This document shows positions 10,550-45,163 of a stretch of 64,000 nucleotides of DNA, piece after piece. Position 1 is the stretch's first letter, and every line of letters starts with the position of its first letter. This DNA is from an uncultured delta proteobacterium (GTDB taxonomy: Bacteria; Desulfobacterota; Binatia; Binatales; Binataceae). Position numbers and translations under genes: made by a program. A model generated the notes under the pieces. The model was not told where the DNA came from and searched no databases. It saw only the letters and a list, made by a program, of their open reading frames with translations. Location of the stretch: assembly GCA_963808235.1 (NCBI GenBank), contig CAWEEQ010000004.1, positions 2,619,611 to 2,683,610 of the forward strand. The letters run 5' to 3'.

Positions 10550-10596
10550 TACAAAAGGCCAGCGTTTGCATTATATAAGGCCAGCGTTCGGATGGG

Positions 10597-12633: not shown

Positions 12634-12654
12634 TAGCACTATCCTAAATATTTT

Positions 12655-14839: not shown

Positions 14840-14925
14840 CGTGGCCTCGGTACGATTGTTTCGCGGCGCGGAGGAATCCTGTTAGGCTGAGCGCGACAAT
14901 TTCCGAGGCGTGAGAGTCGATAATC

Positions 14926-15552: not shown

Positions 15553-15568
15553 TCGAATCTCTAGTTTT

Positions 15569-15904: not shown

Positions 15905-15996
15905 GGGTAAAGTCTCGAAAAGAGTATATCCCCTCGATCGACGACGCGGAACAATTTCATGATTCGCATCTTAATCACCCGAAGGAGTTTTCGATC

Positions 15997-16473: not shown

Positions 16474-16485
16474 AATCGGCTGACG

Positions 16486-17532: not shown

Positions 17533-17534
17533 AC

Positions 17535-30790: not shown

Positions 30791-30800
30791 GCTACCCGCC

Positions 30801-31256: not shown

Positions 31257-32044
31257 CCGGCCGAATCCATCCTTCAGCGATCGTCGACCAAAGCGCCGAA
31301 ATCGACACGAGCGTCGAAATCGGCGCCGGCACGGTCGTCGGGCCTGGCGTCAAAATCGGAGCCGGCACGGTAGTCGGCCCAAACGTGGTGATCGAATGTC
31401 TCACCACTATCGGTAAGCGCAATCGAATCTTCCCGTTCGCCATGGTGGGCGCCGCTACTCCCGATTTAAAATTTCATGGTGAGCCGGCGACGCTGGAGAT
31501 TGGCGACGACAACACGATTCGCGAGTTCACCTCGATTCATCGCGGCACCGAGGTTGGCGGGATGCGCACGACCATCGGCAATCACGTGCTGATCATGCCG
31601 TACGTGCATATCGCCCACGACTGCGAGATCGGCGACAATTGCATCCTGGTCAACTCGACCCAGCTCGGCGGGCACTGCGTGCTGGAGGAATTCGTGAATC
31701 TCGAAGGCATGAGCGGAGTGCATCAGTTCTGCCGCATCGGAGCTCACGCGTTCGTCGCGGCGGGCGCCAAGGTCGCGCAGGATGTGCCGCCGTACTCGAT
31801 GGTGGCTGGCGATCGTGCGCGGCTGGCGGGTATCAACGAGATTGGACTGCAGCGCCGCGGTTTTGGTCCGGAAAAGATCCTTGCGATCAAAGCCGCGACC
31901 CGCACCCTGTTTTTTTCGAAGCTGCTCCGCGAAGAAGCGATCGCGAAAACTCTCGCGGACCACGGCGACCTCTTGGAGGTCCGCCGGCTGGTCGATTTCA
32001 TCAACAACTCCAAGCGCGGAGTCGTTGGCCGCGAGCGTGAATAA
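31166..32044 (+). CDS. lpxA: acyl-ACP--UDP-N-acetylglucosamine O-acyltransferase LpxA
   Basis: IHPSAIVD...hexapeptide repeats...C-terminal helical domain. Start uncertain: first ATG is 91 nt inside fabZ. Confidence 0.88.
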   Translation: MANAGRGAGRRRVGGGGGAVRDGSPGASTIAGRIHPSAIVDQSAEIDTSVEIGAGTVVGPGVKIGAGTVVGPNVVIECLTTIGKRNRIFPFAMVGAATPDLKFHGEPATLEIGDDNTIREFTSIHRGTEVGGMRTTIGNHVLIMPYVHIAHDCEIGDNCILVNSTQLGGHCVLEEFVNLEGMSGVHQFCRIGAHAFVAAGAKVAQDVPPYSMVAGDRARLAGINEIGLQRRGFGPEKILAIKAATRTLFFSKLLREEAIAKTLADHGDLLEVRRLVDFINNSKRGVVGRERE

Positions 32045-32840
32045 GCTCGGGCTCATCGCGGGCAACGGTGTCTTTCCGCTCGAAGTGGCGCGCGCGGCGC
32101 GCGGCCGCGGACTCAAAGTCATCGCAATCGCGCATCTCAACGAAAGCGATCGCGCGATCGACAAGATCGCCGACGAAGTCACGTGGATCAAGGTCGGCGA
32201 GCTGCAGAAAATTATCGACGTGTTCAAAAAAGCCGGCGTCGCGGAAGCCGCGATGGCGGGCGGCATCTCGCGCGCTCGGCTCAAAGATTCGTTCGCACCT
32301 GACGCGCGCGCGCTCGCGATGCTCGCGAGCATCGGACGCTTCAGCGACGACGCGGTGCTGCGCGGAGTAGCGCGCGAAGTCGAAGCGGACGGAATCAGGA
32401 TGATCGATCCAGTTCCGATGATTCCGCACTGGCTGGCGCCGGCCGGTCTCGCCGCCGGACCGGAGCCGACTCCCGCGCAACTGCGCGATCTGGATCTGGC
32501 ATTCGCAGTCGCGCGGCAGTTGGGGCAATTCGACATCGGGCAGACCGTAGCGGTACGTGATGGAGCGGTCGCGGCGGTCGAAGCGCTCGAGGGCACCGAC
32601 GCGGCGCTGCGTCGCGCAGCATCGATCGTCGGCGCGGGACTGGTCGTCGCAAAAGCGGCCAAGCCCGGTCAGGACATCCGCTTCGATCGTCCCGCGATTG
32701 GACCTGCGACCATCGAGTTGCTTGCCGAGATCGGCGCGGCGATGCTCGGCGTCGAGGCCGGCATCGCGCTCATCCTCGAGCACGATCGCACGCTGGAGCT
32801 GGCGCGCTCGAAAAACGTGGGCGTGTACGGCCATGCGTGA
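32037..32840 (+). CDS. lpxI: UDP-2,3-diacylglucosamine hydrolase LpxI (DUF1009)
   Basis: GTG start VNKLGLIAGNGVFPLEVA; DIGQTVAVRDGAVAAVEALEGTDAALRR matches LpxI. 8-nt overlap with lpxA. Confidence 0.8.
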   Translation: MNKLGLIAGNGVFPLEVARAARGRGLKVIAIAHLNESDRAIDKIADEVTWIKVGELQKIIDVFKKAGVAEAAMAGGISRARLKDSFAPDARALAMLASIGRFSDDAVLRGVAREVEADGIRMIDPVPMIPHWLAPAGLAAGPEPTPAQLRDLDLAFAVARQLGQFDIGQTVAVRDGAVAAVEALEGTDAALRRAASIVGAGLVVAKAAKPGQDIRFDRPAIGPATIELLAEIGAAMLGVEAGIALILEHDRTLELARSKNVGVYGHA

Positions 32841-33783
32841 GCTGCGCGCAGCCGTAGTCGGAGCAGGCCGCCTGGGCACGCTTCACGCGCGCAAGTACGC
32901 CGCGGTTGAGGGCATCAAGCTCACGCACATAGTTGACCTCGACGAAGGACGCGCACAGAGTGTCGCGTCGGAACTCGGGGCGACGCCGCTCGCCGATTAT
33001 CGGTTGCTCGCGGGCAAAGTCGATCTTGTTACGGTGGCGTCGCCGGGCGTGACGCATCATGAGATCGCGTCGGCGATGCTGAAATCCGGAATCGACGTGC
33101 TGCTCGAGAAGCCGATGGCGGAGACGCTGGCGCAGGCCCGCGAACTCGCGAAATTGGCGTCAGCGAGCGGGCGTATTCTTCAAATCGGGCATCTCGAACG
33201 ATTCAATCCGGCAGTCGTTCATCTGCATTCGATCGTGAAAAATCCGCGCTTCGTCGAATGCCATCGGCTGGCGCCGTTCACCGAGCGCGGCACCGACGTG
33301 GATGTCGTGCTCGATCTGATGGTGCACGATCTCGACGTGATCATGTCGGTCGCGCCGTCGGAAGTCGCCTCGCTGGAAGCTATCGGGGTCGCGATTCTCA
33401 CCGATCGAATCGATCTCGCCAACGCGCGCATCCGCTTCCAGAGCGGGCTTATCGCCAACCTGGTGACGAGCCGCGTTTCCGCGCGGCGCGAGCGCAAGAT
33501 TCGCTTCTTCCAGCCCGACGCGTATATCTCGGTGGATTACGAAGCGCGCAGCATCCAGCTTTATCGCAAGACTCCCGCCGCGCGCGGCGCGAACTTCCCG
33601 ACTATTTCCGCGGAGCAGATAGAACTCGGCGAGGGCGATCCGCTCGCCGACGAGGTAAATGCGTTCGTCGATGCGGTGCGGCGCCGCTCCAAGCCCGCAG
33701 TCAGCGCCGAGGACGGGCTGCGGGTGATGGAACTAAGCGAGCGAATCAAGGACGTAATGCTGACCGACGCGATCGCGACTTGA
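32833..33783 (+). CDS. Gfo/Idh/MocA family oxidoreductase, GnnA-like by context (possible UDP-GlcNAc 3-dehydrogenase)
   Basis: MRELRAAVVGAGRLGTLHARKY Rossmann fold; EKPMA motif; ATGCGTGA overlap with lpxI. Confidence 0.75.
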   Translation: MRELRAAVVGAGRLGTLHARKYAAVEGIKLTHIVDLDEGRAQSVASELGATPLADYRLLAGKVDLVTVASPGVTHHEIASAMLKSGIDVLLEKPMAETLAQARELAKLASASGRILQIGHLERFNPAVVHLHSIVKNPRFVECHRLAPFTERGTDVDVVLDLMVHDLDVIMSVAPSEVASLEAIGVAILTDRIDLANARIRFQSGLIANLVTSRVSARRERKIRFFQPDAYISVDYEARSIQLYRKTPAARGANFPTISAEQIELGEGDPLADEVNAFVDAVRRRSKPAVSAEDGLRVMELSERIKDVMLTDAIAT

Positions 33784-33832
33784 CGCCTCCTTCCGGCTGC
33801 GCCAGCATTGACGTGGAGCTCCTGTTGAAAAA

Positions 33833-34279
33833 ATGCGTTCGACGAAATTCAAAATACTAGGCGGCGTCGTGCTCGCGGTGGGCGTGGGATTCTTAGTCTT
33901 CACCTCGAGTTCAAACTGCCGGATGGTGACCGGCCGCGAGGCGGTCGACGTCAACGTATCCGCGATGCGTCCGGGAAGCGCGCAACTGTTTTGCTACACG
34001 GACGACGCGGGCAAAAGACTTCGCTTCGTGCTCGCGCGCGGCACCGACGGCAAAGTGCGCACCGTGTTCGACGCGTGCCGGCAATGCTTCACGTTCCATC
34101 GCGGGTACCAGGTGGTGGGCGGCGAACTAATCTGCCGGGTATGCGGCAACCACTACCGCATCGATCGAATGGCCGAGGGCAAAGCGTCGTGCGTGCCGGC
34201 AAGCCTGCCGCATGAAGACGGGTCGGGGGTGGTGAGAATCAAGACCTCGGACTTGCAAGCCGGGCACGCGCTCTTCTAA
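33833..34279 (+). CDS. membrane-anchored Cys-ribbon protein (CxxC...CxxC), uncharacterised
   Basis: N-terminal TM helix; FDACRQC...ICRVCG four-Cys motif; immediately upstream of SCO1. Lacks the H/M-rich motifs of PCuAC. Confidence 0.5.
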   Translation: MRSTKFKILGGVVLAVGVGFLVFTSSSNCRMVTGREAVDVNVSAMRPGSAQLFCYTDDAGKRLRFVLARGTDGKVRTVFDACRQCFTFHRGYQVVGGELICRVCGNHYRIDRMAEGKASCVPASLPHEDGSGVVRIKTSDLQAGHALF

Positions 34280-34287
34280 GCAAATCC

Positions 34288-34899
34288 ATGAATCAAGGCC
34301 GCACCAGTCGTGTTCGCGGACGAGTCTTCTCGATCGTCGCCGTGGCGTTTCTGGTTGTTTTCTCGGCATGCAATCGGGAGGCGGCCGGCGATTATCCGGC
34401 GGCGAACGGGAATAATTGCCTGCCCGATGTGAGTCTGATCGATCAGCACGGGAGTACTGTTTCGCTGGCCTCGCTGAAGGGCAAACCGGTGCTGATCGAT
34501 TTCATCTACACGTCTTGCGCGTCGACCTGCCCGGTACTGACGGCGAAGATGGTGTCCGTGGCGCGCCAACTCGGCCCCGCTCTGGGAGCCAACGTGACGA
34601 TTGTTTCGATTACGCTCGATCCCGAGCACGACGGTCCCGCGCAACTCGCGAGCTATGCGAAATCGCAAGGCGCCGACGCTCGTGGGTGGCTGTTTCTGAC
34701 CGGCAAGCCCGCCCAAGTCGACCAGGTGCTCGCGCTGTTCAAGCTGCGGCGGATGCGCGAGAGCGACGGATCGATCACGCATTCGGTGTCGGCATTCCTG
34801 CTCGGTCCCGACGGCCACCAGGTTCGCCAGTACAATGCACTCAACGTCAACGCGAGCGCGGTAGTCGGCGATATCGATCGCTCGCGCGGCAAGAGTTAA
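34288..34899 (+). CDS. SCO1/SenC family copper chaperone (thioredoxin fold)
   Basis: LKGKPVLIDFIYTSCASTCP (CxxxC) ... TLDPEHD ... conserved His in SITHSV. Confidence 0.85.
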   Translation: MNQGRTSRVRGRVFSIVAVAFLVVFSACNREAAGDYPAANGNNCLPDVSLIDQHGSTVSLASLKGKPVLIDFIYTSCASTCPVLTAKMVSVARQLGPALGANVTIVSITLDPEHDGPAQLASYAKSQGADARGWLFLTGKPAQVDQVLALFKLRRMRESDGSITHSVSAFLLGPDGHQVRQYNALNVNASAVVGDIDRSRGKS

Positions 34900-34902
34900 C
34901 CG

Positions 34903-35223
34903 ATGGCAACCTCGCTGGGAATCGATCGGCTCTCTATTCGTCAACTTGCCGGCGCGATGGCGCTGGTGATGATGATTGCGAGTCTGCCGGCGATCGGCGT
35001 GATCGTCATTGCCGATCGTGCGGGGCCAACTATATCGCTCGACATCTGTCATCCGCTGCAATCGCTCGACGCGTCACCAGGCGCCGTGTCGATCGCGCGC
35101 CCCGCGCAGCCGGAGATTGGCATCCAGATTCTTGCGCATGAGGCATTTGCCCAGTTTGTTCCCATTGCGAAGAGTAAATTCGCCGAGACTCCCGATCCGC
35201 CTCCGCCCAAGTCGCTCTGCTAG
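34903..35223 (+). CDS. small single-TM protein with conserved C-terminal TPDPPPPKSL motif (uncharacterised family; paralog of 37617..37931)
   Basis: LVMMIASLPAIGVIVIA TM; ICHPLQ; ARPAQPE; ends ETPDPPPPKSLC. Clear paralogy with 37617..37931. Confidence 0.5.
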   Translation: MATSLGIDRLSIRQLAGAMALVMMIASLPAIGVIVIADRAGPTISLDICHPLQSLDASPGAVSIARPAQPEIGIQILAHEAFAQFVPIAKSKFAETPDPPPPKSLC

Positions 35224-35316
35224 ACGGACACCCTTACATTTTTTCGCAGATAGACGATTGCTCGCGGACCTCGACGGTTCGCGAGAGCAGGATACGGCCC
35301 GAGCTGGCCGCGGTGG

Positions 35317-36291
35317 ATGCTTATGCGGAGGAATTTTGTTTTTGCGTTGATAGCCGTGCTGGTGTTGCGCGCGAGCGCGGCATCCGCGCACGGAGTTGTG
35401 GGAGACTACGTGTTCCTTGAGCCGCTGGTGGCCGAGGATCCCACTCCCGCCAATGAGCTGGACATCCTGGCGCCATCGTGGGTCAGAAGCAGCGACGCTA
35501 ATGACTACTCGATCGGATTCTCGGGCGAGAAAGTTCTTTGGATCGACGACAACTACATGCCGACATTCAGCCTGGCGGCCGGTACGGCGTGGCATCATGT
35601 TTCGCCGTTTAACATCTCTGTGCCGCGATCACGGGTCCTCGGAACGCTCGCCCCACTGCACACACCCAGCCACGAAGGAGTTGATAATCCGGAGGTAGCC
35701 GCAAAATGGGCCTTCTTCTATTCGCTGCCACATGAGTTTCTGACCTCGGTAGCATTGGTAGCCGACTTGCCGGTGGGCAACAGCGCGATCCGGAATCAGA
35801 GCCACACGAGCCTAGGTCCGGAACTGCTTATGGAAAAGGGTCTCGGCGACCTTCCCAATATGCCGGTGCTGAAATATCTTCGGCCGCTGGGACTCCAGGG
35901 CAACGTCGGTTATTTGCCGGCACTAGGCGGGCAGACCAGTCATGACCTGTTTGCCAATGCTGTGATTGAGTATTCGCTCCCGTACCTGAGCAACAATGTT
36001 CAGGATATTGGACTCAAGTGGCCGCTCCGCAACCTCTACCCGTTCGTGGAAATCAACTACGATCAACTGGTCAAAGGACCATCGGGCCAGACATTCCCCT
36101 CGATCCTGGCGACCCCCGGCATCGCGTACGTCAGCTATCACTTCGAACTGAGCCTTGGCACTCAGTTCGCGCTCAACGACGCAGCCCGACCCGGCACCCA
36201 TGCCGCGGTGCTTGGTCTGCTGGACATTTTTTACGATTCGTTTTTCCCGAAATGGGGCAACTGGACTATCAATCGAGGACCCGGCCAATGA
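35317..36291 (+). CDS. exported hypothetical protein; predicted mature N-terminus begins with His (ASAASA|HGVVGDY); translationally coupled (ATGA) to copC
   Basis: Signal peptide MLMRRNFVFALIAVLVLRASAASA; amphipathic beta-strand-like C-terminal region. No recognised family. Confidence 0.55.
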   Translation: MLMRRNFVFALIAVLVLRASAASAHGVVGDYVFLEPLVAEDPTPANELDILAPSWVRSSDANDYSIGFSGEKVLWIDDNYMPTFSLAAGTAWHHVSPFNISVPRSRVLGTLAPLHTPSHEGVDNPEVAAKWAFFYSLPHEFLTSVALVADLPVGNSAIRNQSHTSLGPELLMEKGLGDLPNMPVLKYLRPLGLQGNVGYLPALGGQTSHDLFANAVIEYSLPYLSNNVQDIGLKWPLRNLYPFVEINYDQLVKGPSGQTFPSILATPGIAYVSYHFELSLGTQFALNDAARPGTHAAVLGLLDIFYDSFFPKWGNWTINRGPGQ

Positions 36292-36668
36292 AGACTTCGA
36301 AAATGTGCGTATCGGGTGCGGCGCTAGTTGCTATTGGGATGAGCTTTGCGATCGTGGCGTGGGCACATTCGTTTCCCGAGTCGGAGACTCCGTCGGCGGG
36401 ACAAACGGTCGCATCCGCTCCCGCCGAGATAACGATCAACTTCGACGCTCCGATAGAGAAGCTGTTCGCCAAGCTGGAAGTGACCGGCGCCGACGGCAAG
36501 AACGAAGCGGCCGGCGCTCCGCAGATCAGCGACGACGGACGGCGGATGTCGGTGAAGGTCAACGCGCTCAAACCCGGCGACTACGCGGTCAAGTGGGCCG
36601 TCGTAGGTATCGATACGCATCATACGCAAGGCTCGTACACGTTCGCGATCGCAAGCGGAGGATCGTGA
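36288..36668 (+). CDS. copC: copper resistance protein CopC (periplasmic Cu-binding, His1 mature N-terminus)
   Basis: Signal peptide ...IVAWA|HSFPESETPSAG; KPGDYAVKWAVVGIDTHHTQGSYTFAI matches the CopC fold. Confidence 0.85.
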   Translation: MKTSKMCVSGAALVAIGMSFAIVAWAHSFPESETPSAGQTVASAPAEITINFDAPIEKLFAKLEVTGADGKNEAAGAPQISDDGRRMSVKVNALKPGDYAVKWAVVGIDTHHTQGSYTFAIASGGS

Positions 36669-37531
36669 TCGAACCAGCGGTAATTCTGGCCTGGCCATTG
36701 ATCACGGCCCAGATCGTGATTTTTGGAACTGCGGCTTTTGCGCTGATGACATCACCTGGCGAGGTCCCGGGCGGCGATGGACCGACCCACGCCCTCATCG
36801 TGCTATGGCGCGGACTGGCGCTTGCGATTCTTGCAATTTCGCCGGTGAGGTTCCTGGCCGTGGCGGCCGGCATGGCCGACACTACGTTGAAGGAAGCCAT
36901 TCCATTTGTGCCGCAGATAATGCGCGAAACATTCGCCGGGCGGGTGTGGGCATGGCGACTCGGCGTCGACGCGATTCTGGCGATTGCGGCGTGGCTTCCA
37001 GCGCGTCGGAAGCTCCCGGTTCTGATCTCCGCGATTTCGTGCGCACTGCTCCTATTCCAGAGCGTCACGAGTCACGCGGTGGATAGCGGCGCGTACGCGA
37101 TCGCAATTGTATTCATTCATCAGGTTGCCGCGGGCTTGTGGATCGGAGCGCTGGTAACCTTGCTGGTTGGAGCAACCTTCGGCCGCGCGGGCGCCGAGTG
37201 GCTCAAGTGGGCTTCGGGGCGAGTGTCAACGACTGCGGGATGGTCGGTAGCGGCGCTTGCCATCACCGGCGCGATCAGGGCGTGGTACGCGCTCGGACTG
37301 CGCTACGACCTGCTGGTGTATTCGCTCTACGGCCGCACCCTGCTCTGGAAGCTCGCGACCGCGGCAACGGTGATTCTGATCGGCGGATACAACCGCTATC
37401 GCCTGGTGCCGGCAGTGGGCGAAGCGTCGGCGCGCACGACGCTGATTCATAATGTCACCCTGGAATGCCTGCTGCTGGCCGCGGTTCTCGGTTGGTCCGC
37501 GCTGCTGGCCAACACGCCGCCGCCGCATTGA
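36665..37531 (+). CDS. copD: copper resistance protein CopD (8-TM membrane protein)
   Basis: GTG start overlapping the copC stop (GTGA); polytopic; conserved His residues (FQSVTSHAVDSG..FIHQVAAGLW). Confidence 0.8.
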   Translation: MIEPAVILAWPLITAQIVIFGTAAFALMTSPGEVPGGDGPTHALIVLWRGLALAILAISPVRFLAVAAGMADTTLKEAIPFVPQIMRETFAGRVWAWRLGVDAILAIAAWLPARRKLPVLISAISCALLLFQSVTSHAVDSGAYAIAIVFIHQVAAGLWIGALVTLLVGATFGRAGAEWLKWASGRVSTTAGWSVAALAITGAIRAWYALGLRYDLLVYSLYGRTLLWKLATAATVILIGGYNRYRLVPAVGEASARTTLIHNVTLECLLLAAVLGWSALLANTPPPH

Positions 37532-37616
37532 CGAAAGTTTTGCGCCAGGCACCGCGATCGCGATGCCAATGGACATTGAACTCGGGGGACGGTTACTTTA
37601 GAACGGTAACTGCGCT

Positions 37617-37931
37617 ATGAGGCAATTCTTTTCAAAGGCGGACTTGCGGGACCTGAGTTTGGTCATGGCCATAGTGATGCTGTTGGCCAGCATCCCCGTG
37701 ACTGAGGGGTTCGTCGTCGTCTCGAGGCCGAGCGGACCAGAATTGACCGCCAACATTTGCCAGCCGATTCAAATGTTCGACCGCGCGTCGAACACGTTGC
37801 TCGCGCGCCCCGCGGCCGTCGCGCCGGAGGTCGTTCTCTGCGATCTGGGCCCGGCCGCGATAAAGGAGACGGTGCGATTGGTCGACATCAAGATCGCTCC
37901 CGACACTCCGCCCCCAAAGAGCCTCGTCTAA
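37617..37931 (+). CDS. small single-TM protein with C-terminal DTPPPKSL motif (paralog of 34903..35223)
   Basis: LVMAIVMLLASIPVTEGFVVV TM; ICQPIQ; ARPAAVAPE; ends APDTPPPKSLV. Confidence 0.5.
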   Translation: MRQFFSKADLRDLSLVMAIVMLLASIPVTEGFVVVSRPSGPELTANICQPIQMFDRASNTLLARPAAVAPEVVLCDLGPAAIKETVRLVDIKIAPDTPPPKSLV

Positions 37932-38018
37932 GAACTCTCGACAACGTTTCCTCTGATAGCCACGCTGCGAACCTCGCGGCGGAAGGCGTTTTCTCTGAGG
38001 CAAGCGGCGCGCCGCAAG

Positions 38019-39002
38019 GTGTCCGCTGGGAGATGTTCTATGCGACGGAGTTATTGGGTTGCCCTGTTGGCAGGAGCGGCCGTTTTTCTGATCGGCCTGA
38101 CGCCCGATCTGAGCTGGGCCTGCGCTTGTGGATGTGGAGTCTACGAAGTCGGTACCGCAGCGTTGTTTCCGACCGACCACGGCGGAACGGTCTGGTTGGA
38201 GTATGACTACCAGGATCAGTACCTGAACTGGCATGCGACCCAAATCGCCTCAGGGGCCAAGAATGGCGACAAGAGAATCCGGACGCACTTTCTGACTCTC
38301 GGTGGTCAGTACATGTTCAACCGGAGTTGGGGAGTGCAGCTGGAGCTCCCGTACGCGTTTCGCTACTTCAAATCGACCAACGACGCCGGCCAGATTTTCG
38401 GGACCAACTTCAACACCATCGGGGACATCCGTATCCAAGGAATGTACACCGGGCTCTCGGAAGACATGTCGACGGGGCTGATGGCCGGCGCGAAGTTCCC
38501 GAGCGGATGGTGGACTTATCCGCATGCCGATCGAGACACCCAGATTGGCTCGGGGAGCACCGATCTACTGCTCTCGGCTTACCATCTCGGAACGTTTCCA
38601 ACCCATGTTGGGAAGCTGCCGCTGACGTTCAGGGATCGCCCTTTCAACTGGTTTGTGCAGGCGTACGAGGATTTCCCGGTTTTCACGCAAGACCACTATA
38701 CCCCGGGAAGGGAATTCGACTCGGCGCTGGGGGTCTACTACAACTTCGGCACGGTTGGCCCTTTGAAGGAACTCGCGCCGATGCTGACCTTTCTCGCTTC
38801 CGACCGCGCGCGTGACCAAGGCGCCTCTGCCAATCATGAGAACAGCGGCTATACGCGCTTTCTCATTGCTCCTGGAGCCGAGATCAAACTCGGAATCTTG
38901 CGACTATACGGAGACGTCGAGGTCCCGTTTTTTCAAAATATGATTGGTAATCAGATAACCGCGCCGCTCCTGTTCAAGACCATTGTAAGCTACGACTTCT
39001 AG
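38019..39002 (+). CDS. putative outer-membrane beta-barrel protein with CACGCG motif at predicted mature N-terminus
   Basis: Signal peptide ...LTPDLSWA|CACGCGVYEV; alternating-hydrophobic strands; C-terminal ...LLFKTIVSYDF (aromatic terminal residue typical of OMPs). Confidence 0.55.
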   Translation: MSAGRCSMRRSYWVALLAGAAVFLIGLTPDLSWACACGCGVYEVGTAALFPTDHGGTVWLEYDYQDQYLNWHATQIASGAKNGDKRIRTHFLTLGGQYMFNRSWGVQLELPYAFRYFKSTNDAGQIFGTNFNTIGDIRIQGMYTGLSEDMSTGLMAGAKFPSGWWTYPHADRDTQIGSGSTDLLLSAYHLGTFPTHVGKLPLTFRDRPFNWFVQAYEDFPVFTQDHYTPGREFDSALGVYYNFGTVGPLKELAPMLTFLASDRARDQGASANHENSGYTRFLIAPGAEIKLGILRLYGDVEVPFFQNMIGNQITAPLLFKTIVSYDF

Positions 39003-39011
39003 GAGCATCAG

Positions 39012-39545
39012 ATGCGCTCAAAAATGTCCTGGTTCGCCGCAGTTGTTGCCGGGATCCTTGCGTTTGCCGGTTCCAGCACTTTCGCGCGCGCGGCCACCGA
39101 TGTCGGTCAGCCCGCGCCCGCGCTGGTCGTGCCGGAACTGGACGGCCAGGCGTTTGACCTAAGTGCGATGCGCGGGAAGGTCGTAATCGTCAATTTCTGG
39201 GCCACCTGGTGTCCTCCCTGCCGCGAGGAGATGCCGGCCCTCGACAGTTTCTATCGGCGCTATCATGGTCAGGGGCTTGAAATGATCGGTCTCAGCTCCG
39301 ACCGCCCGCACAATCGGTCCGACGTGACCAAGGTCATGCAATCATTCAGCTATCCGGCGGCGATGCTGGATGACGCCAAGGTCAACGAGTTCGGCACATC
39401 CAGCGTTCTGCCGATCACCGTCATCGTGGATAGAAATGGCGTGGTGCGCGCGAAGCTTACCCCCGATCAAACCCCGGTTACCGAGAAGAGTCTATCCGAC
39501 GCGGTGCTACCGCTGCTGGCGCAAAGTTCGGCGGCGAATCCTTAG
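39012..39545 (+). CDS. TlpA/ResA-family thiol-disulfide oxidoreductase
   Basis: Signal peptide; VVIVNFWATWCPPCREEMP (WCxxC). Confidence 0.8.
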   Translation: MRSKMSWFAAVVAGILAFAGSSTFARAATDVGQPAPALVVPELDGQAFDLSAMRGKVVIVNFWATWCPPCREEMPALDSFYRRYHGQGLEMIGLSSDRPHNRSDVTKVMQSFSYPAAMLDDAKVNEFGTSSVLPITVIVDRNGVVRAKLTPDQTPVTEKSLSDAVLPLLAQSSAANP

Positions 39546-39552
39546 GCTCCCA

Positions 39553-39882
39553 ATGAAGACCTTCGCCTTACTCGCGATCATTCTGATGGCTGGATGCTCA
39601 GCCGCGAACACTCACACCGGTGATATGGATCCGAGGCTCGCTGACCTGGAAGCACAGAGGCAGACGATCGCCGGGCGCGAGAAAAAGTGCATCGACGAAA
39701 CGCAGGCGCGTAGCCATGATCAAGTGGAGCGCGATCGGGAAGTTTTGGAATGCCACGCGACGGCGCATCACGAAAACGCCGAAATCTCCGAGCAAGAGCG
39801 CAAAGAATATGAGCTTCAGGCGCAGGAGGAGAGGCATCGTGCTTCCCTTATGGCGATTCTTACGACCTCTCAGCCACGCTGA
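39553..39882 (+). CDS. small lipoprotein, charged/coiled, Cys-His-rich (hypothetical)
   Basis: Lipobox LMAGCSA; KKCIDE...LECHATAHHENAE. Visibly lower GC than the neighbours. Confidence 0.45.
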   Translation: MKTFALLAIILMAGCSAANTHTGDMDPRLADLEAQRQTIAGREKKCIDETQARSHDQVERDREVLECHATAHHENAEISEQERKEYELQAQEERHRASLMAILTTSQPR

Positions 39883-39887
39883 GGACT

Positions 39888-40529
39888 ATGAATGGAAGTA
39901 GAATGGATTCGAGTCGAACTGCAGCCGATCTTGTTCATATGACTTCAACAGTGTCGATCGCCAGTACTGATTCGGCGCGCATCCCACAGGGAGGGGGTCT
40001 CGGAATGCAGGTTCTGCGCGATCTCGGTGGGGTCGCGCTGCTCGCAATCGCGTCGCTCGCGGCTGGACTCGTGATTAACCGGTTTTCACACGGCCCGCTT
40101 CCAGTCGTGTATCAGACGCCAGAGGAGCGGTTCGATGCCGAGCTGACGACTCTGGTCGCGGCGCCGCCGTTTAAGATCGCGCCCGCGGCAACGGTCGGAC
40201 TCGATGAATTCCGCAAGGCCGTCGAAAGCAAGAGTGCGCTCATCCTGGATGCGCGCCCGTCCGTGTTCTTCGAACAGGGACACGTCCCGGGGGCGCTCAA
40301 TCTCGCGCGAGACGACTTCGCGCGCGACTATCGGAACTTGGCTGGCGTGCTGCAGGCCGCCCATGACAAACCGATCGTCGTGTATTGCTCCGGTGGCGAC
40401 TGTCATGACAGCCGGCTGGTTGCGAACGCGCTGCTGAGTCTCGGCATCAACAATGTGACGATCTTCACCGGGGGTTGGAATGAGTGGTCGGCGGCCGGAC
40501 TGCCGGCATCGACGGGGAGCGGACCATGA
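39888..40529 (+). CDS. membrane-anchored rhodanese-domain sulfurtransferase
   Basis: ALILDARPSVFFEQGHVPGALNL ... PIVVYCSGGDCHDS (active-site Cys loop) ... GGWNEW. The true start may be internal. Confidence 0.75.
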   Translation: MNGSRMDSSRTAADLVHMTSTVSIASTDSARIPQGGGLGMQVLRDLGGVALLAIASLAAGLVINRFSHGPLPVVYQTPEERFDAELTTLVAAPPFKIAPAATVGLDEFRKAVESKSALILDARPSVFFEQGHVPGALNLARDDFARDYRNLAGVLQAAHDKPIVVYCSGGDCHDSRLVANALLSLGINNVTIFTGGWNEWSAAGLPASTGSGP

Positions 40530-41014
40530 TGACGCTCGACAGCTCGCGCCGCTACGTCGTGTTGGCGATCAGCGCGGTGCTGGCCGGCGTGTTCATCTAC
40601 GCGGGCATCGATAAGATTCGCGACCCGCTGCAGTTTGCGGATAGTATCGCGGCATTCGCGATCCTGCCGGTCGTGTTGATCAACCTGCCTGCGATCGGGT
40701 TGCCACCATTCGAGATAGGTTGCGCGCTCCTGTTGCTTCCGCCGGCGACCAGGCGGATCGGTGCGCTCGCCGTGGCTCTTCTGTCCGTCGTTTTCATGAT
40801 CGCCCTGTCGTCCGCACTGCGTCGAGGTCTCACGCTCGACTGCGGATGTTTCGGGACCGGCGCGCCGTCGCGGCCGAGAATGTGGTTGGAGCTGGCGCTG
40901 GACGCAGGTTTGTTCGCGGGCGCGGTGTTCGTCTATTTGAGCTCGATCGCCCGCCTCTCCGCGCGGACGCCGTCTCTCTCTTCTTCACCGCAGCCTCAGG
41001 TTACAAACGAGTGA
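40526..41014 (+). CDS. MauE/DoxX-family redox-associated membrane protein
   Basis: 4 TM; LDCGCFGTG motif typical of MauE; ATGATGA overlap with the rhodanese gene. Confidence 0.7.
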   Translation: MMTLDSSRRYVVLAISAVLAGVFIYAGIDKIRDPLQFADSIAAFAILPVVLINLPAIGLPPFEIGCALLLLPPATRRIGALAVALLSVVFMIALSSALRRGLTLDCGCFGTGAPSRPRMWLELALDAGLFAGAVFVYLSSIARLSARTPSLSSSPQPQVTNE

Positions 41015-41044
41015 CCGGCGACAACAACAATCCAAATATCAGGA

Positions 41045-41656
41045 ATGGATGCAAATATGAGTATTCATCGTAGTCTCAGATCTCTAGCTATCGTCGCAGC
41101 AATAACGTCGAGCCTGCTCGCGGTGACTGGATGCCATCGCGGCGCCGCCGCGGATGACGCGGCCGCCTCGAACTGCCTCACGGACACCAGCCTCATCGAT
41201 CAGAATGGCGACAAGGTCTCGCTCGCGTCGCTCAAGGGCAAGCCGCTGGTGGTGGATTTCATCTATACGTCGTGTCCGGGGCCGTGCCTGATGGAGACGG
41301 CGAAGCTGGCCAACGTCGCGCTTCGATTGGGAAGCGATCTCGGTTCAAAGGTCATGATCGTTTCGATCAGCGTCGATCCCGAGCATGACGGGCCCAAACA
41401 ATTGCTCGCTTACTCGCGTCAGCAGGGCGCGGACGAGAAGGGCTGGTATTTCCTGACCGGAGGTCCCGGCGACGTCGACAAAGCGCTGGCGGGTTTCAAG
41501 CTCAGCAGGCAAATCGAACCCGATGGCTCGGTCGGGCACCTGGTCGATATGATGCTTATCGGACCCGACGGGCGGCTGGTTCATGAATACAACGGCGAAG
41601 TCGTAAAAGCTCAGACTATCGTCGATGATGTCAGGAAGACCCTGAACAAGAGTTGA
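41045..41656 (+). CDS. SCO1/SenC family copper chaperone (second paralog; lipoprotein)
   Basis: Lipobox LAVTGC; LKGKPLVVDFIYTSCPGPCL (CxxxC); SVDPEHD; about 50% identical to 34288..34899. Confidence 0.85.
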   Translation: MDANMSIHRSLRSLAIVAAITSSLLAVTGCHRGAAADDAAASNCLTDTSLIDQNGDKVSLASLKGKPLVVDFIYTSCPGPCLMETAKLANVALRLGSDLGSKVMIVSISVDPEHDGPKQLLAYSRQQGADEKGWYFLTGGPGDVDKALAGFKLSRQIEPDGSVGHLVDMMLIGPDGRLVHEYNGEVVKAQTIVDDVRKTLNKS

Positions 41657-41666
41657 AGGGTGCAGC

Positions 41667-42131
41667 ATGAGACGAGCAATCATTTTCGGATCTTCGCTCG
41701 CGACGATTCTGGCGCTGGCATATTTGTGGCCGATGGTCGCTGGTTCGTCGGCGCAGAGCGGCGGTCCTCGCGGAGCGATGTGCGTCGCGGGCCATTGCTG
41801 CTGCTCGGGACGCGCAGAGGCGCAGACCGTCGCGGCTAACGAATCACAAGGCGCTCCGACGCTCGATCCAAAGCAGTTCGTGGGTCCGGTAAGAGAGGCG
41901 TACACATTTGCGGGGAAGGATCCCGCGCTGCTGGCGCAACTGCATTGCTACTGCGGATGCGACAAGGCGTTCGGTCATCAGAGCCTGCTCGATTGCTATC
42001 GCGGCACCCATGGAGCGACGTGCGAGGTCTGCACTCAGGAGGCGTTGCTGGCGAAGCGCATGTCGGAGCAAGGTTCGCCGGTCGATGAGATACGCAACGC
42101 GATTCGCAGAAACTTCGCGCCCGACAATTGA
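41667..42131 (+). CDS. PCYCGC-motif protein (Cys-rich, secreted)
   Basis: Signal peptide; GHCCCSG; LHCYCGCDKAFGHQSLLDCYRGTHGATCEVC matches the PCYCGC family signature. Confidence 0.6.
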   Translation: MRRAIIFGSSLATILALAYLWPMVAGSSAQSGGPRGAMCVAGHCCCSGRAEAQTVAANESQGAPTLDPKQFVGPVREAYTFAGKDPALLAQLHCYCGCDKAFGHQSLLDCYRGTHGATCEVCTQEALLAKRMSEQGSPVDEIRNAIRRNFAPDN

Positions 42132-42257
42132 GTTGCGGGGGACAACCTATTTGCGACGTCGTGCTTTTCAATCACAATCGCTTCGATGCGATTGAATGCC
42201 GAAGCACAGCGACCGCCAGGTGACCGCCTGAAGGAAACCGAACGCCGACGCCGAATC

Positions 42258-43373
42258 ATGATCGTGGCGGGCGAGGCGTCGGGCGACCTTCATGGCGGCG
42301 ACCTGGCGCGCGAGATCGCGGCGCGCAATCCGGGCTGCGAACTGTTCGGAATAGCCGGCGAGAAGATGCGCGCGGCGGGAGTGCGAGCGCTGGTCAGGAT
42401 GGAGGATATCCACGGGCTCGGACTCTCCGAACTCGCCTCGACGATCGGACGCACGGTTTCCGCGTTTCGCGAGCTGCGGAGGATCATCAAGCGCGACAAG
42501 CCCGACCTCGTGATCCTGATCGATTACGCCGAATTCAACCTGATTCTCTCCGGCACCGCCCGGCGCGCGGGCGTGCCAGTGCTCTATTACATCACGCCGC
42601 AGGTGTGGGCGTGGCGGCGCGGGCGCGTCGACAAGCTGGTCGATCGCGCGGACCGTCTCGCGGTGGTGCTGCCATTCGAGAAGGAGCTGTTTCATCGCGC
42701 GGGCGAGCGGGTTTCATTCGTCGGGCATCCTTTGCTTGACCGCGTCGCGAAGGTGTCGAGTCGCGCGGAGACGTTGAAGCTTCACGGATTTTCACCAGGA
42801 GCACGACTGATCGCGATTCTGCCCGGGAGCCGCCGCGCGGAAGTTCGCTACCTGCTGAAGCCGATGGTGGAGGCGGCGCGGATCATTGCGCGCGACAATA
42901 ACCTGGAAGTAGCGCTCGCGCTCGCGCCGACGCTGACCCGCGACGAACTTGCCGCGGTCGGGCGCGCAGATCTCGCCGGAGTGCGAATTGTCGAGAACGA
43001 TACGTATAGTATTGTCGCCGCGAGCCAGCTTGCGCTGGTGGCGTCGGGGACTGCCACGCTCGAGACGGCGCTGCTCGGATGCCCCGAGGTGATCGCTTAC
43101 AAAGTCTCGCCACTTACCTATATTCTAGGGCGGATGCTTGTGACCGGAGTGGATTTTATCGGGATGCCGAACATATTGGCGGGCCAGCAAATTGTGCCGG
43201 AACTGATCCAGGGCGAGGTGACCGTGGAAAACCTCGTGCGGGCCGCCGAGCCGCTGCTCAGCGATACGATTCGCGCCGAAACAGTAACGGCGCTCGGCGC
43301 GCTGCGTGACAAGCTGGGCGCTCCGGGAGCCGCCGGCCGCGTCGCCGAAATTGCGCTGAGCATGATCGCATGA
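42258..43373 (+). CDS. lpxB: lipid-A-disaccharide synthase LpxB
   Basis: IMIVAGEASGDLHGG...PDLVILIDYAEFNL...YYITPQVWAWR. Start set at MIVAGE (42258). Confidence 0.85.
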   Translation: MIVAGEASGDLHGGDLAREIAARNPGCELFGIAGEKMRAAGVRALVRMEDIHGLGLSELASTIGRTVSAFRELRRIIKRDKPDLVILIDYAEFNLILSGTARRAGVPVLYYITPQVWAWRRGRVDKLVDRADRLAVVLPFEKELFHRAGERVSFVGHPLLDRVAKVSSRAETLKLHGFSPGARLIAILPGSRRAEVRYLLKPMVEAARIIARDNNLEVALALAPTLTRDELAAVGRADLAGVRIVENDTYSIVAASQLALVASGTATLETALLGCPEVIAYKVSPLTYILGRMLVTGVDFIGMPNILAGQQIVPELIQGEVTVENLVRAAEPLLSDTIRAETVTALGALRDKLGAPGAAGRVAEIALSMIA

Positions 43374-45163
43374 AGATGCTCACCCCATTGCAATTGCGCA
43401 TGCTCGGATACCTCCGCCGGTACATGTTTCCCTACGTGGTATTGCTTGCAATCGCGATGCTCACGCTGTCAGCGGCTACCGGGGGCGTGCCGGTGCTGGT
43501 ACGGATGGTGGTCGATCTCGGGACCAGTCTCGGCGTTTCGCATCGTCTCGATAGGCACGGCGCCTTCATGCTGCGGGAATACTCGCTGGTGCTGGCGGGA
43601 CTATTTTTGCTCCGCGCGATCGCCAATTTCTCCGATGACTATTTGAGCGCCTACATCGCCCAGAAGGTCACGATGGATCTTCGCGCCGATCTCAACGAAA
43701 GCCTGCAACGCCAATCGCTCAGCTTTTTCAATCGCACCCCGACTGGAGTGATGGTTTCACGCGTGATCAATGATGTGAACCTCGTCACGCAAGCCATCAC
43801 CAACGGAGTATTTTCCGTCTTCGGCGGCGGCGCGTCGCTGATAGTGCTTCTCGTGGTCGCATTCAAGCTCGATTGGCGGCTGGCGATTGTCGCCTTTATC
43901 GGTTTCCCAATCGTCGTCATTCCGATCGTAAGTCTTTCCAAGAAAGTGCGCCGCGAGACCAAGAATTCACAGAAGCAAATGAGCGGCCTGCAATCGCTGC
44001 TGCACGAAACCTTCCAGGGAAACCGCGTCGTCAAGGCGTTCGGGATGGAAGATTACGAGCGCAAGCGATTCAACCGCGAGCTGAAGCGCCTGTTTCGAAT
44101 CTACCTGCGCGTCGCGCGAATCAAAGCGTTTACCGGTCCGCTGATCGAGGCGATGGGGGCGTTCGCGGTCGTGGCGGTCGTATGGTGGGCGATGGGCTCG
44201 CTGCAATCGGGCGCGCGCACGCTCGGTCAATTCGCCGGTTTTTTCACGGTGATGATCCTGGTGTACCCGCCCTTCAAGAGCGTCAGCAAGACCAACAACA
44301 CCATCCAGCAGGGGCTCGCCGCCGCCGAGCGCGTCTTCGAAATGATGGATCATCCGAGCGATGTGCCCGACAATCCCGATGCGACGGAGCTAGCGCACGG
44401 CCCGCATAGCATCGCGTTCGAAAACGTGAGTTTCAGATACGGCGAGGAATGGGTGCTGCGCGATATCAACCTCGAGATTGGCGCGGGCAAGGTGGTGGCG
44501 CTGGTCGGGATGAGCGGTGGCGGCAAATCCACGATCGCGGACCTGATTCCGCGCTTCTATGACGTTCAGAAAGGGCGCGTAACGATCGACGGAATCGACG
44601 TGCGCAACCTGAAAATTGCATCGCTACGCGCGGAAATCGGCCTGGTCACTCAGCATACGTTTCTCTTCGACGACACGATTCGCGACAACATCGCGTACGG
44701 CAGCGGCGACCGGAAACTCGATCGGCTGAGCGCGGCCGCCAAGCTCGCCAACGCGCACGACTTCATCTCACGGCTGCCGGCGGGCTACGAGACGATGGTC
44801 GGTGAGCTGGGCGTTCGCATGTCGGGCGGCGAGCGCCAGCGTATCGCGATCGCGCGCGCACTCTTGAAGGACGCACCGATCCTGATTCTCGACGAAGCGA
44901 CTTCTTCACTCGACTCGGAGTCAGAACGATCGGTGCAGGAGGCGCTCGAGCATCTGATGGCGAATCGAACCACGCTGGTGATTGCGCATCGCTTGTCCAC
45001 CGTGCGCCGCGCGGATCGAATTGTAGTGATCGTCCACGGTCGAATCGTCGAAGAGGGAACTCACGACGAGCTGTTCGCGCGGGGCCGCGAATATCGCAAA
45101 CTTTACGATCTCCAGTTCATGTCGCCCGAGGATCTCGCCGGCAACGGCGGACTCGTCAACTGA
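43370..45163 (+). CDS. msbA: lipid A export ABC transporter permease/ATPase MsbA
   Basis: 6-TM exporter domain + NBD (GMSGGGKST, LSGGERQRIAIARAL, ILILDEATSSLD). 4-nt overlap with lpxB. Confidence 0.85.
   Translation: MKMLTPLQLRMLGYLRRYMFPYVVLLAIAMLTLSAATGGVPVLVRMVVDLGTSLGVSHRLDRHGAFMLREYSLVLAGLFLLRAIANFSDDYLSAYIAQKVTMDLRADLNESLQRQSLSFFNRTPTGVMVSRVINDVNLVTQAITNGVFSVFGGGASLIVLLVVAFKLDWRLAIVAFIGFPIVVIPIVSLSKKVRRETKNSQKQMSGLQSLLHETFQGNRVVKAFGMEDYERKRFNRELKRLFRIYLRVARIKAFTGPLIEAMGAFAVVAVVWWAMGSLQSGARTLGQFAGFFTVMILVYPPFKSVSKTNNTIQQGLAAAERVFEMMDHPSDVPDNPDATELAHGPHSIAFENVSFRYGEEWVLRDINLEIGAGKVVALVGMSGGGKSTIADLIPRFYDVQKGRVTIDGIDVRNLKIASLRAEIGLVTQHTFLFDDTIRDNIAYGSGDRKLDRLSAAAKLANAHDFISRLPAGYETMVGELGVRMSGGERQRIAIARALLKDAPILILDEATSSLDSESERSVQEALEHLMANRTTLVIAHRLSTVRRADRIVVIVHGRIVEEGTHDELFARGREYRKLYDLQFMSPEDLAGNGGLVN

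Follow-up and report, generated by a model that had tools for sequence, protein, structure and literature searches.

A modular block of copper- and thiol-redox-family genes between gfo and lpxB in a lipid A operon of a Candidatus Binatus-like bacterium

Introduction

What are fourteen genes, most of them from copper and thiol-redox families, doing in the middle of an operon for lipid A synthesis, and how did they come to be there? The question is raised by a stretch of 64,000 nucleotides from an uncultured delta proteobacterium (assembly GCA_963808235.1, contig CAWEEQ010000004.1, positions 2,619,611 to 2,683,610 of the forward strand; 'the window' below always means this whole stretch), in which a block of genes at 33833–42131 stands between gfo, for a Gfo/Idh/MocA oxidoreductase, and lpxB. 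A previous reading of the letters alone (the sequence-only reading) had proposed that the block is an island acquired into a conserved operon. We report here that the block is an old one that accreted module by module and has a native composition, and that it is not one imported island. As to its role, we lean towards a system of the cell envelope that handles copper.

The DNA comes from a Candidatus Binatus-like member of the Binataceae (Binatota), its LpxB being 84–87% identical to that of many Ca. Binatus genome bins. Copper enzymes, copper membrane monooxygenases among them, have been reported from the Binatota (PMC8262859), and the locus is relevant to the annotation of this globally abundant, uncultured soil phylum. 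Taken as a finding on genome organisation alone, it is a moderate curiosity.

Results

Gene content of the block

The sequence-only reading had listed 14 genes that split the lipid A operon, and searches with Pfam and NCBIfam bore out both their order and their content. All 14 are on the + strand and their spacing is operon-like, with intergenic gaps of −4 to 108 nt and three gene pairs that overlap by 4 nt (among them the copC start over the exp324 stop and the mauE start over the rhodanese stop); the only four spacers longer than 50 nt lie 5′ of exp324, PPPKSL-b, OMP and lpxB. Nine genes could be assigned clearly to a family (FtrD-like/DUF2318, SCO1 twice, CopC, CopD, TlpA/ResA-like, rhodanese, MauE and PCYCGC), and for the remaining five (PPPKSL-a, PPPKSL-b, exp324, OMP and a lipoprotein) no Pfam or NCBIfam match was found. 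The unmatched genes are nonetheless real and conserved, with homologue clusters numbering 599, 455 and 2603.

We divide the block into a core and two modules, A and B. The core begins with a membrane-anchored FtrD-like (DUF2318) protein (33833–34279; PF10080, E 3.5e-18) that has the CxxC pairs CRQC and CRVC. It includes two Sco-type copper chaperones/thiol-disulfide oxidoreductases that are 52% identical, SCO1a (34288–34899; PF02630, E 2.6e-28, 99.1 bits) and SCO1b (41045–41656; PF02630, E 3.5e-23, 82.5 bits), against a gathering cutoff of 22.8 bits. It can be seen from the translations that SCO1a has the lipobox FSAC, the motif CASTC and a His in THSV, and that SCO1b has the lipobox VTGC, the motif CPGPC and a His in GHLV; each protein has the CxxxC and distal His predicted to serve as copper ligands. 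The core ends with a membrane-anchored, Cys-rich protein of the PCYCGC/CYCXC family with the motif HCYCGC (41667–42131; PF13798, E 4.2e-12, 46.7 bits versus a cutoff of 25), which also scored 114 bits against NF041379 (CYCXC family (seleno)protein; cutoff 90).

Downstream of SCO1a is the gene for PPPKSL-a, a protein of 106 aa with an N-terminal membrane anchor (34903–35223), and then, after a conserved leader, exp324, which opens module A and encodes an exported 324-aa protein (35317–36291). It is followed by genes for the periplasmic copper-binding protein CopC (36288–36668; PF04234, E 7.6e-22, 78.6 bits versus 23.3) and the inner-membrane, copper permease-like CopD (36665–37531; PF05425, E 1.5e-13, 51.5 bits versus 32.1). 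As expected of a Cu(II) site, CopC has a His directly after the signal peptide (HSFPE following AWA; the cleavage site is inferred) and the motif IDTHH. Although both proteins score above the Pfam cutoffs, they fall below the NCBIfam equivalog cutoffs (NF033814, 79 versus 95 bits for CopC; NF033808, 113 versus 195 bits for CopD), and we therefore regard them as family members and not as proven equivalogs.

In the window, module B is opened by PPPKSL-b (37617–37931), a divergent paralogue of PPPKSL-a, followed by the gene for OMP, a 327-aa outer-membrane protein (38040–39002), and by that for a TlpA/ResA-like periplasmic thiol:disulfide oxidoreductase (39012–39545) with WCPPC past its signal peptide. 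The latter matches AhpC-TSA (E 4.7e-23), Redoxin (E 3.1e-21) and Thioredoxin_8, but its equivalog scores are below cutoff (TlpA, 73.6 versus 230 bits; ResA, 95.5 versus 170 bits), so that we name it TlpA-like only; an identity as MauD was rejected (19.8 bits versus a cutoff of 188.6). Next come a small, helical, Glu/His-rich lipoprotein of 109 aa with the lipobox MAGC (39553–39882; no significant family match), a membrane-anchored rhodanese with the active-site loop CSGGDC (39939–40529, with a start possibly as early as 39888; PF00581, E 1.3e-20) and a MauE/DoxX-family integral membrane protein (40526–41014; PF07291, E 2.8e-28, 99 bits). In NCBIfam the rhodanese shows weak similarity to rhodanese-related (seleno)proteins and TsoB. 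The MauE/MauD set for methylamine dehydrogenase maturation is not represented here, and Pfam searches found no mauAB genes in the window.

The junction between gfo and lpxB in related loci

The junction was compared in 160 related loci, designated by L numbers where they must be told apart. Eighty were lpxB loci with 10-kb flanks from species-representative genomes, to which the window proteins were mapped by tblastn and by blastp at the level of open reading frames (ORFs), and a further 80 came from a scan of metagenome contigs with an alignment of PPPKSL proteins. The gap between gfo and lpxB measures only 38–133 bp in all outgroups (other Binatia, Desulfobulbia, Syntrophobacteraceae and Gemmatimonadaceae) and up to 215 bp in many Binataceae (LpxB 65–76% identical), and elsewhere in the Binataceae it reaches 9.4 kb. 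As gfo abuts lpxB in the outgroups and in many Binataceae, the block is derived.

Among the 74 genome loci that hold both gfo and lpxB, a graded series of states was found. The junction is empty, with no homologue of any gene of the block, in 27 of them; a single SCO1 gene is present in nine, and SCO1 with a CopC-like gene in six. The core (FtrD-like, SCO1 and usually PCYCGC) occurs by itself in eight loci, with module A (PPPKSL-exp324-CopC-CopD) in 13, with module B (PPPKSL-OMP-[SCO1-PCYCGC]-TlpA-lipoprotein-rhodanese-MauE) in three, and with both modules in eight. Every one of the 305 homologous ORFs lies on the operon strand. In a neighbour-joining tree of LpxB, MsbA and LpxK the loci with an empty junction are basal, and the distribution of the states follows clades but is patchy. 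The FtrD-like gene was found in all Ca. Binatus loci, SCO1b orthologues (76–83% identical) adjoin lpxB in most of them, and lipoprotein homologues (46–53% identical) hold the same position in relatives. However, Ca. Binatus species that stand at equal LpxB distance from the window (84–87%) differ widely in OMP (51–90% identical) and exp324 (56–80%), a mosaic that suggests recombination or fast evolution of surface proteins. From the graded states we conclude that within the Binataceae the block grew step by step in modules, and that modules were also lost and reshuffled. The content of the lpxA–lpxB interval thus differs among relatives, which the sequence-only reading had itself named as the sign of an insertion.

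Other cargo is also seen in relatives, at the same site or at other junctions of the operon, and includes a sulfotransferase, a HisKA_3 membrane protein, an epimerase and an alpha/beta hydrolase. In L062 the same site carries NicO, a YHS protein, a cytochrome c and an ECF sigma factor. Insertions further downstream (L010:11204-14264, L009:12994-15096 and L003:12991-14068) comprise one of 3 kb at the lpxB–msbA junction, with genes for a sulfotransferase-like protein and for a membrane protein similar to the HisKA_3 protein found in L016, and others of 1–2 kb between msbA and waaA.

Composition and signs of mobility

The G+C (GC) content of the block is 0.6025, compared with 0.6071 in the remainder of the window, and its GC content at third codon positions (GC3) is 0.723, compared with 0.749 in the flanking lpx genes (Mann–Whitney p = 0.15). 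Tetranucleotide distances in 4-kb windows across the block gave z scores of −1.4 to +1.0. It had been noted by eye that the part at 38–40 kb is lower in GC. This is numerically true, as GC is 0.572 in one of the two bins and 0.587 in the other, where the window mean is 0.607 (sd 0.022), but the values (z −1.55 and −0.88) lie inside the normal spread of the window, in which six of the 64 one-kb bins are at or below 0.572. The dip is confined to the first two codon positions of the genes for the barrel proteins exp324 and OMP, and is absent from GC3 (0.68–0.70 in these genes, inside the window range); it therefore reflects amino-acid composition.

Searches for direct or inverted repeats flanking the block returned only short matches at chance level. 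No tRNA or tmRNA genes are present in the window, no Rfam family reached its gathering score anywhere in it, and no integrase or transposase domains were found by Pfam in the region of the block. The atypical composition and the flanking repeats that the sequence-only reading had put forward as marks of an acquired island are thus both absent, and neither composition nor mobility signs mark the block as recently foreign. Like a genomic island, however, it is variably present among relatives at a fixed site.

The lone tetranucleotide outlier of the window is at 3001–7000 (z = 3.05). It falls in a region of glycosyltransferase and rhamnose genes and includes a 1177-aa ORF on the − strand (2673–6206) with no Pfam match.

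Arrangement of the modules in the window

The window holds the core and both modules, with A before B and a second PPPKSL gene 5′ of OMP. Relatives with both modules have B first and then A, with a single PPPKSL gene; the gene order of the window was absent from the 80 genome loci and the 80 metagenome loci, and a second, divergent PPPKSL gene placed as in the window was not seen in any of the 160. The segment 33700–37531 is colinear with loci that have the core and module A (for example L003 and L011), and nucleotide homology ends exactly at the CopD stop codon, 37531. The following 37532–38075 (spacer, PPPKSL-b, spacer) has no nucleotide counterpart in Ca. Binatus loci, and homology returns from 38076 with module B and then SCO1b-PCYCGC-lpxB. 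The closest relative as judged by its flanks, the metagenome contig L085 (gfo 93% and lpxB 88% identical), has the core and module A only, with no module B. A b-type PPPKSL gene followed by a CxCxC-type OMP, TlpA and the lipoprotein was found in the independent metagenome contigs L081–L083. Since colinearity ends at CopD, L085 lacks module B, and b-type PPPKSL genes precede OMP elsewhere, the simplest history is that a genome with the core and module A received, after CopD, an entire module B that included a b-type PPPKSL gene, and we consider that this is probably how the arrangement arose.

The conserved leader that separates PPPKSL-a from exp324 (35224–35316, + strand, about 95 nt) contains TTTCACATTTTCG, the palindrome TTGCTCGCG-N13-CGCGAGC and CGGCC-N6-GGCCG; besides the palindrome a second, small hairpin was noted. 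Its 3′ end supplies the ribosome-binding site and the first codons of the next gene, M(L/F)MRRN, the first five codons being common to exp324 and OMP genes. Counterparts occur in relatives 5′ of exp324 or OMP (L017:2344-2440, L003:6568-6595 and L014:5666-5757), and because the leader is identical whichever of the two genes follows, it is likely to be a joint for module exchange. It may be an operator or RNA element as well as a recombination joint. A conserved hairpin was considered for the leader and rejected, as RNAalifold gave just −3.5 kcal/mol with compensatory changes in one or two sequences.

A promoter-like element upstream of lpxB

An element with the form of a promoter precedes lpxB (42147–42185, + strand). 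It consists of CTATTTGCG, a variable stretch of 9–10 nt and TTTTCAATCACAATC, and the blocks are invariant in 26 of 26 Ca. Binatus loci, whatever gene precedes lpxB (PCYCGC, CopD, SCO1 or other). In Binataceae in which gfo abuts lpxB it is still recognisable as TTCCATCACAAT. The element can be read as TTGCGA-16-CACAAT, with a −10 box that ends 7 nt before the ATG at 42186, and at this distance transcription of lpxB could yield a leaderless mRNA. Neither intrinsic terminators nor sigma-70 promoters exceeded shuffled expectation, and a riboswitch or attenuator in the lpxB leader region (42132–42270) was dropped as a candidate (RNA structure z −0.67). The 24 codons 5′ of the Pfam LpxB domain (MIVAGEASGD at 42258) show in-frame conservation with 3-nt indels.

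The sequence-only reading had reasoned that the block must be co-transcribed with lpxB or insulate it. The tight spacing, together with terminator signals at chance level, agrees with the block being read together with the upstream lpx genes, which is probable, and the conserved element suggests that lpxB is insulated and has a promoter of its own. As the block always lies between the gfo stop codon and the element, the site looks like a natural joint of the operon. Cargo could thus be added at the 3′ end of the upstream unit while lpxB-msbA-waaA-lpxK would keep its own promoter.

Origin of the block

Acquisition into a conserved operon, as first proposed, stands in so far as the adjacency of gfo and lpxB in outgroups makes the block a derived insertion; it fails as a single import of 8.3 kb of foreign DNA, given the native composition and the graded states. 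Besides that adjacency, a single and fairly recent horizontal acquisition could draw on the slightly low GC of the 38–39 kb bin and on PPPKSL-b and its spacers, which have no close counterpart in related genomes. Set against this, GC, GC3 and tetranucleotides are uniform, there are no repeats, tRNA or mobility genes, and intermediate states are spread across the family. In addition, most of the block (33700–37531 and 38076–42300) is colinear with orthologues that occupy this site in dozens of Ca. Binatus species (66–84% nucleotide identity). We regard a single import as very improbable.

The opposite possibility is that the full cluster was present in the common ancestor of the Binataceae and that present diversity arose by differential loss alone. 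The deep-branching Binataceae L062 and L074 do hold module B genes at the site, and the parts are all co-directional and native in composition. However, the junction is empty, with clean spacers of 40–215 bp, in every outgroup from beyond the Binataceae and in most of the deep lineages within the family. Furthermore, the order of the modules varies between lineages, OMP and exp324 show mosaic identities among species in which lpxB is 84–87% identical, and PPPKSL-b is a distinct paralogue, and these three observations require gain or recombination and not loss alone. An ancestral full cluster is therefore unlikely, and accretion in steps at one site within the family is the history that we prefer.

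Related clusters away from lpx genes

In the scan of metagenome contigs the PPPKSL genes were mostly found between gfo and lpxB, but three long contigs carried the cluster away from lpx genes. In L159 the order is FtrD-PPPKSL-OMP-TlpA-lipoprotein-exp324-CopC-CopD-SCO1...SCO1-PCYCGC-rhodanese, downstream of a carboxylesterase gene. L161 shares the neighbourhood of L159 but has only FtrD-(PPPKSL)-exp324-CopC-CopD-SCO1; both clusters (L159:9518-17794 and L161:9421-13276) lie downstream of a MetE-like gene of 370 aa and a carboxylesterase-like gene of about 510 aa. As module B is present in L159 and missing from L161, the same polymorphism of modules recurs at a second site in the chromosome. The third contig, L155 (Ga0335085_10000543, 1499–19004), has FtrD-PPPKSL-OMP-TlpA-YHS-SCO1-COX2-like-SCO1-PCYCGC, and about 4–13 kb past the cluster it encodes another SCO1, Caa3_CtaG, an exported Fe/Mn superoxide dismutase, a CopC-like protein and coxB-coxA-coxC. 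The free-standing clusters of L155, L159 and L161 show that the gene set is a portable functional unit.

COX2-like cupredoxin genes were found within the cluster in L010 as well as in L155, and the best contextual link of the cluster is with haem-copper oxidase assembly. The L010 gene (L010:4940-5542), inside the island of a Ca. Binatus relative, encodes a 200-aa COX2-domain protein with an atypical metal-site motif (HGNCDSGCGCNTVCM), in which Cys takes the place of the His of CuA sites.

PPPKSL proteins and the two barrels

PPPKSL proteins are about 105 aa long and have an N-terminal hydrophobic anchor, the motif I-C-(H/Q)-P, then ARPA and a C-terminal P-D-x-P-P-P-K. In PPPKSL-a these read ICHPLQ, ARPA and PDPPPPKSLC, and Cys49 and Pro51 are invariant in the alignment. 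The family forms 122 clusters at 50% identity among 1.84 billion representatives. PPPKSL-b shares 37% identity with PPPKSL-a and falls into a separate subfamily in which NICQP replaces ICHP, and an origin by recent duplication was rejected on these grounds. No orthologue above 43% identity was found in the 80 genome loci, and the nearest representative is 64% identical.

A barrel gene directly follows PPPKSL in 25 of 26 genome loci and in 55 of 58 metagenome cases. In the OMP family the sequence C-A-C-G-C, preceded by W-A, is invariant right past the signal peptide (CACGCG, a CxCxC motif), and the proteins end in S-Y-D-F. The AlphaFold2 (AF2) model of OMP (pLDDT 74.4, pTM 0.72) is a 12-stranded barrel, and Foldseek matched it to FapF (E 9e-8) and to the COG4313 protein Pput2725 (4rl8; E 1.7e-7), with target-normalised TM scores (TMt) of 0.63–0.71. 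In the exp324 family the mature N-terminus H-G-V-V-G-D-Y-x-F-L-E-P, preceded by A, is invariant, as are four further His residues. The AF2 model of exp324 is all-beta and of low confidence (pLDDT 57.6), and its best Foldseek match was FapF (E 1e-5, TM 0.4–0.57), so that exp324 is probably also a COG4313/FapF-like outer-membrane barrel. Weak matches to PF13557 (Phenol_MetA_deg) were seen for two of 25 exp324 homologues (E 0.0099), but neither exp324 nor OMP of the window matched it and they do not belong to that sequence family. BLASTP and hhalign detected no homology between exp324 and OMP, and neither barrel family matched any Protein Data Bank (PDB) chain by sequence.

COG4313 proteins are 12-stranded barrels in which about 14 N-terminal residues occlude the lumen (PMC4493636). 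The invariant His and CxCxC motifs sit at the N-terminus, where this plug lies, in a segment that is poorly modelled. Such N-termini, and a copper/thiol context, have not been described for the COG4313/FapF fold. The exp324 of the window also has a 16-residue insertion, NISVPRSRVLGTLAPLH (35608–35655, residues ~98–113), common only to its two nearest homologues, P0121 (100%) and P0122 (89%), and missing from the remaining 23 aligned members.

The new parts of the block are thus the PPPKSL family and two COG4313/FapF-like barrels, which are candidate outer-membrane copper channels. We have also entertained a bolder idea, which we think rather unlikely, that PPPKSL and the barrels form an undescribed, TonB-independent copper route over the outer membrane, the barrels being gated by His-Gly-Val-Val-Gly-Asp in exp324 and by Cys-x-Cys-x-Cys in OMP. 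Each barrel would work with an inner-membrane-anchored, extended Cys-(His/Gln) PPPKSL partner whose PDPPPPK C-terminus would reach or enter it; exp324 would hand copper to CopC/CopD, and OMP to the Sco/TlpA branch. If this were true, the block would be a complete copper supply line from the outer membrane to the enzyme.

A possible role in copper handling

Sco proteins and the thioredoxin-like TlpA prepare and metallate CuA, TlpA reducing ScoI and CoxB before metallation (PMC7558416), and CopC/CopD-type pairs are known in which CopD/YcnJ is implicated in Cu import (PMC7558416; PMC11923076). Taken together with the cox, CtaG and COX2-like context of the related clusters, this literature points to copper supply and cysteine reduction for cytochrome oxidase. 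On balance we favour the view that the block grown at the gfo–lpxB junction encodes a modular envelope system that handles copper and keeps metal-binding cysteines reduced, most likely serving the maturation of cytochrome c oxidase (CuA) and possibly of other exported copper enzymes.

The transport, redox and transcription steps of such a system we infer from family memberships, motifs, the OMP fold, synteny and composition. Copper would pass the outer membrane through the two 12-stranded barrels and be bound by CopC, from which CopD, the two lipoprotein Sco chaperones or both would receive it. The TlpA-like reductase would keep the cysteines of Sco and CuA reduced, with reducing power brought over the inner membrane by MauE and its rhodanese partner, and PPPKSL, the FtrD-like protein and the CYCXC protein could be further membrane-anchored carriers of thiols or metal.

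Several observations weigh against this view. No cuproenzyme, PCuAC, P-type ATPase or regulator was found by Pfam in the window, and the empty junction in 27 of the 74 loci means that the block is accessory at this site; housekeeping sco genes may lie elsewhere. CopC, CopD and TlpA miss their equivalog cutoffs, as described above, and the electron route through MauE and rhodanese is conjecture. The lpxB element is a sequence pattern with eight of 12 consensus matches and scores too low to pass the promoter scan. The model of exp324 is of poor quality, residues 1–45 of the OMP model have pLDDT below 50, and the substrates of characterised proteins of the COG4313/FapF fold are hydrophobic compounds or unfolded polypeptides and not metals (PMC4493636, PMC5557850).

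The main rival is that the block is a resistance island for copper or another thiophilic metal, which would detoxify or sequester an excess of it in the periplasm and not supply enzymes, with barrels that export in the manner of PcoB/CopB and a gene content that tracks metal stress in soil or peat. Resistance operons are where CopC and CopD were originally defined (PMC7558416), the distribution of the block among close species is accessory and patchy, several of its periplasmic proteins are rich in Cys or His, and L062 has metal-related cargo (NicO, YHS, ECF sigma factor) at the same site. However, none of the hallmark parts of a resistance system is present, which weakens the case for detoxification: Pfam found no CopA multicopper oxidase, CopB or two-component regulator in the block or the rest of the window, which also lacks any match to PcoA or PcoB, P1B ATPases, CusCBA and CopRS/CueR. 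Sco and TlpA, moreover, are assembly factors, and related clusters have COX2-like genes and a cox/CtaG neighbourhood. We would give resistance a minor chance of being correct. Far less credible is a coupling to the outer membrane or to lipopolysaccharide (LPS), in which the products would act on LPS or outer-membrane biogenesis, for instance by redox control of Lpt or Bam. The whole window is indeed an envelope/LPS supercluster and the block encodes two BAM substrates and three lipoproteins, but the same gene set occurs away from lpx genes in L155, L159 and L161, no protein of the block belongs to a known LPS family, and many relatives have an intact operon without the block.

Flanking genes

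The orders bamA-skp-fabZ-lpxA-lpxI-gfo upstream and lpxB-msbA-waaA-lpxK downstream of the block, as given by the sequence-only reading, were confirmed by Pfam. Genes for an FtsX/MacB permease (25368–26699) and an ABC ATPase (26692–27420) are followed by those for BamA (27548–29959), OmpH/Skp (30140–30790), FabZ (~30798–31256), LpxA (31166–32044) and LpxI (32040–32840). The upstream lipid A block ends with gfo (32827–33783, + strand; PF01408, E 1.2e-26), the left border of the variable site, whose top NCBIfam model is UDP-GlcNAc 3-dehydrogenase NF040723, at 182 bits well below the cutoff of 450. The right border is lpxB (42186–43373, + strand; PF02684, E 5.2e-93, 312 bits), and it is followed by genes for an MsbA-type ABC protein (43370–45163), WaaA (45170–46468), LpxK (46469–47593), a GT87 protein and a Kdo kinase.

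There are two genes for GT87-family glycosyltransferases within the LPS/envelope region, at 12655–13899 and 47842–49086, and the latter is kept 3′ of lpxK in nearly all Binataceae loci. When outgroup LpxD was searched by tblastn, lpxD was missing between skp and fabZ (30790–30798) and from the whole 64 kb, the sole match in the window being its paralogue lpxA. An lpxD-like gene is present at the skp–fabZ position in the more distant Binatia loci L064, L065, L067 and L071.

Discussion

The locus described here is a natural case of an essential, conserved operon into which an accessory cluster has been able to grow at a single junction; this seems to be tolerated because the gene downstream retains a promoter of its own. 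Like classical genomic islands the block is variably present among close relatives at one chromosomal site, but unlike them it does not deviate in composition, is bordered by neither tRNA genes nor repeats, and lacks an integrase or transposase.

The passage of copper over the outer membrane to periplasmic chaperones is poorly understood beyond a few TonB-dependent receptors and porins. The block offers three conserved, uncharacterised candidates, namely PPPKSL, the barrel with an N-terminal His and the CxCxC barrel, in tight linkage to Sco, TlpA and CopCD. The OMP barrel resembles the 12-stranded Pput2725 (4rl8) and FapF (5o65), and exp324 matches the same folds more weakly. However, the window proteins have no significant Pfam membership, and the known members handle hydrophobic compounds or amyloid subunits.

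Among redox systems, Campylobacter fetMP-fetABCDEF (P19/Ftr1; PMC10783030) likewise has a DUF2318/FtrD-like Cys-rich domain beside periplasmic thioredoxin-like proteins, and YHS-domain proteins occur in the related clusters L062 and L155. In contrast, the block has no Ftr1 permease, P19 or ABC transporter, and the FtrD-like protein of the window is small and single-anchored, not an eight-helix membrane protein. In Mycobacterium, DoxX, the rhodanese SseA and SodA form a membrane oxidoreductase complex. The block similarly has the gene for a DoxX/MauE-type protein beside that for a rhodanese, and an exported Fe/Mn superoxide dismutase is encoded next to the L155 cluster; here, however, MauE and not DoxX is the best family, and the context is one of copper chaperones.

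Closer comparisons are found in copper trafficking. Modules of CopC and CopD for import (B. subtilis YcnJ; E. coli YobA-YebZ-YebY; PMC8689200, PMC11923076) share with the block a CopC with an N-terminal His, an overlapping CopD and an association with Sco. The pair in the window differs in being translationally coupled to the preceding barrel gene exp324 and linked to a PPPKSL gene. A Streptomyces sco operon likewise combines Sco with a CopCD-like gene. With the Sco/TlpA/PCuAC pathway to CuA in Bradyrhizobium (PMC7558416) the block shares Sco-family proteins, of which it has two, with CxxxC and His, and a TlpA/ResA-like periplasmic CxxC reductase, and clusters related to the block stand beside coxBAC and CtaG or contain COX2-like cupredoxins. 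In contrast to that pathway, the block has no PCuAC and its reductase is below the TlpA equivalog cutoff, and it adds CopCD, two barrels, MauE/rhodanese, CYCXC, an FtrD-like protein and PPPKSL at an unusual site in a lipid A operon. We conclude that the block is of an already known kind, that of Sco/TlpA/CopCD copper trafficking, in an unusual position and with three uncharacterised families tightly linked to it.

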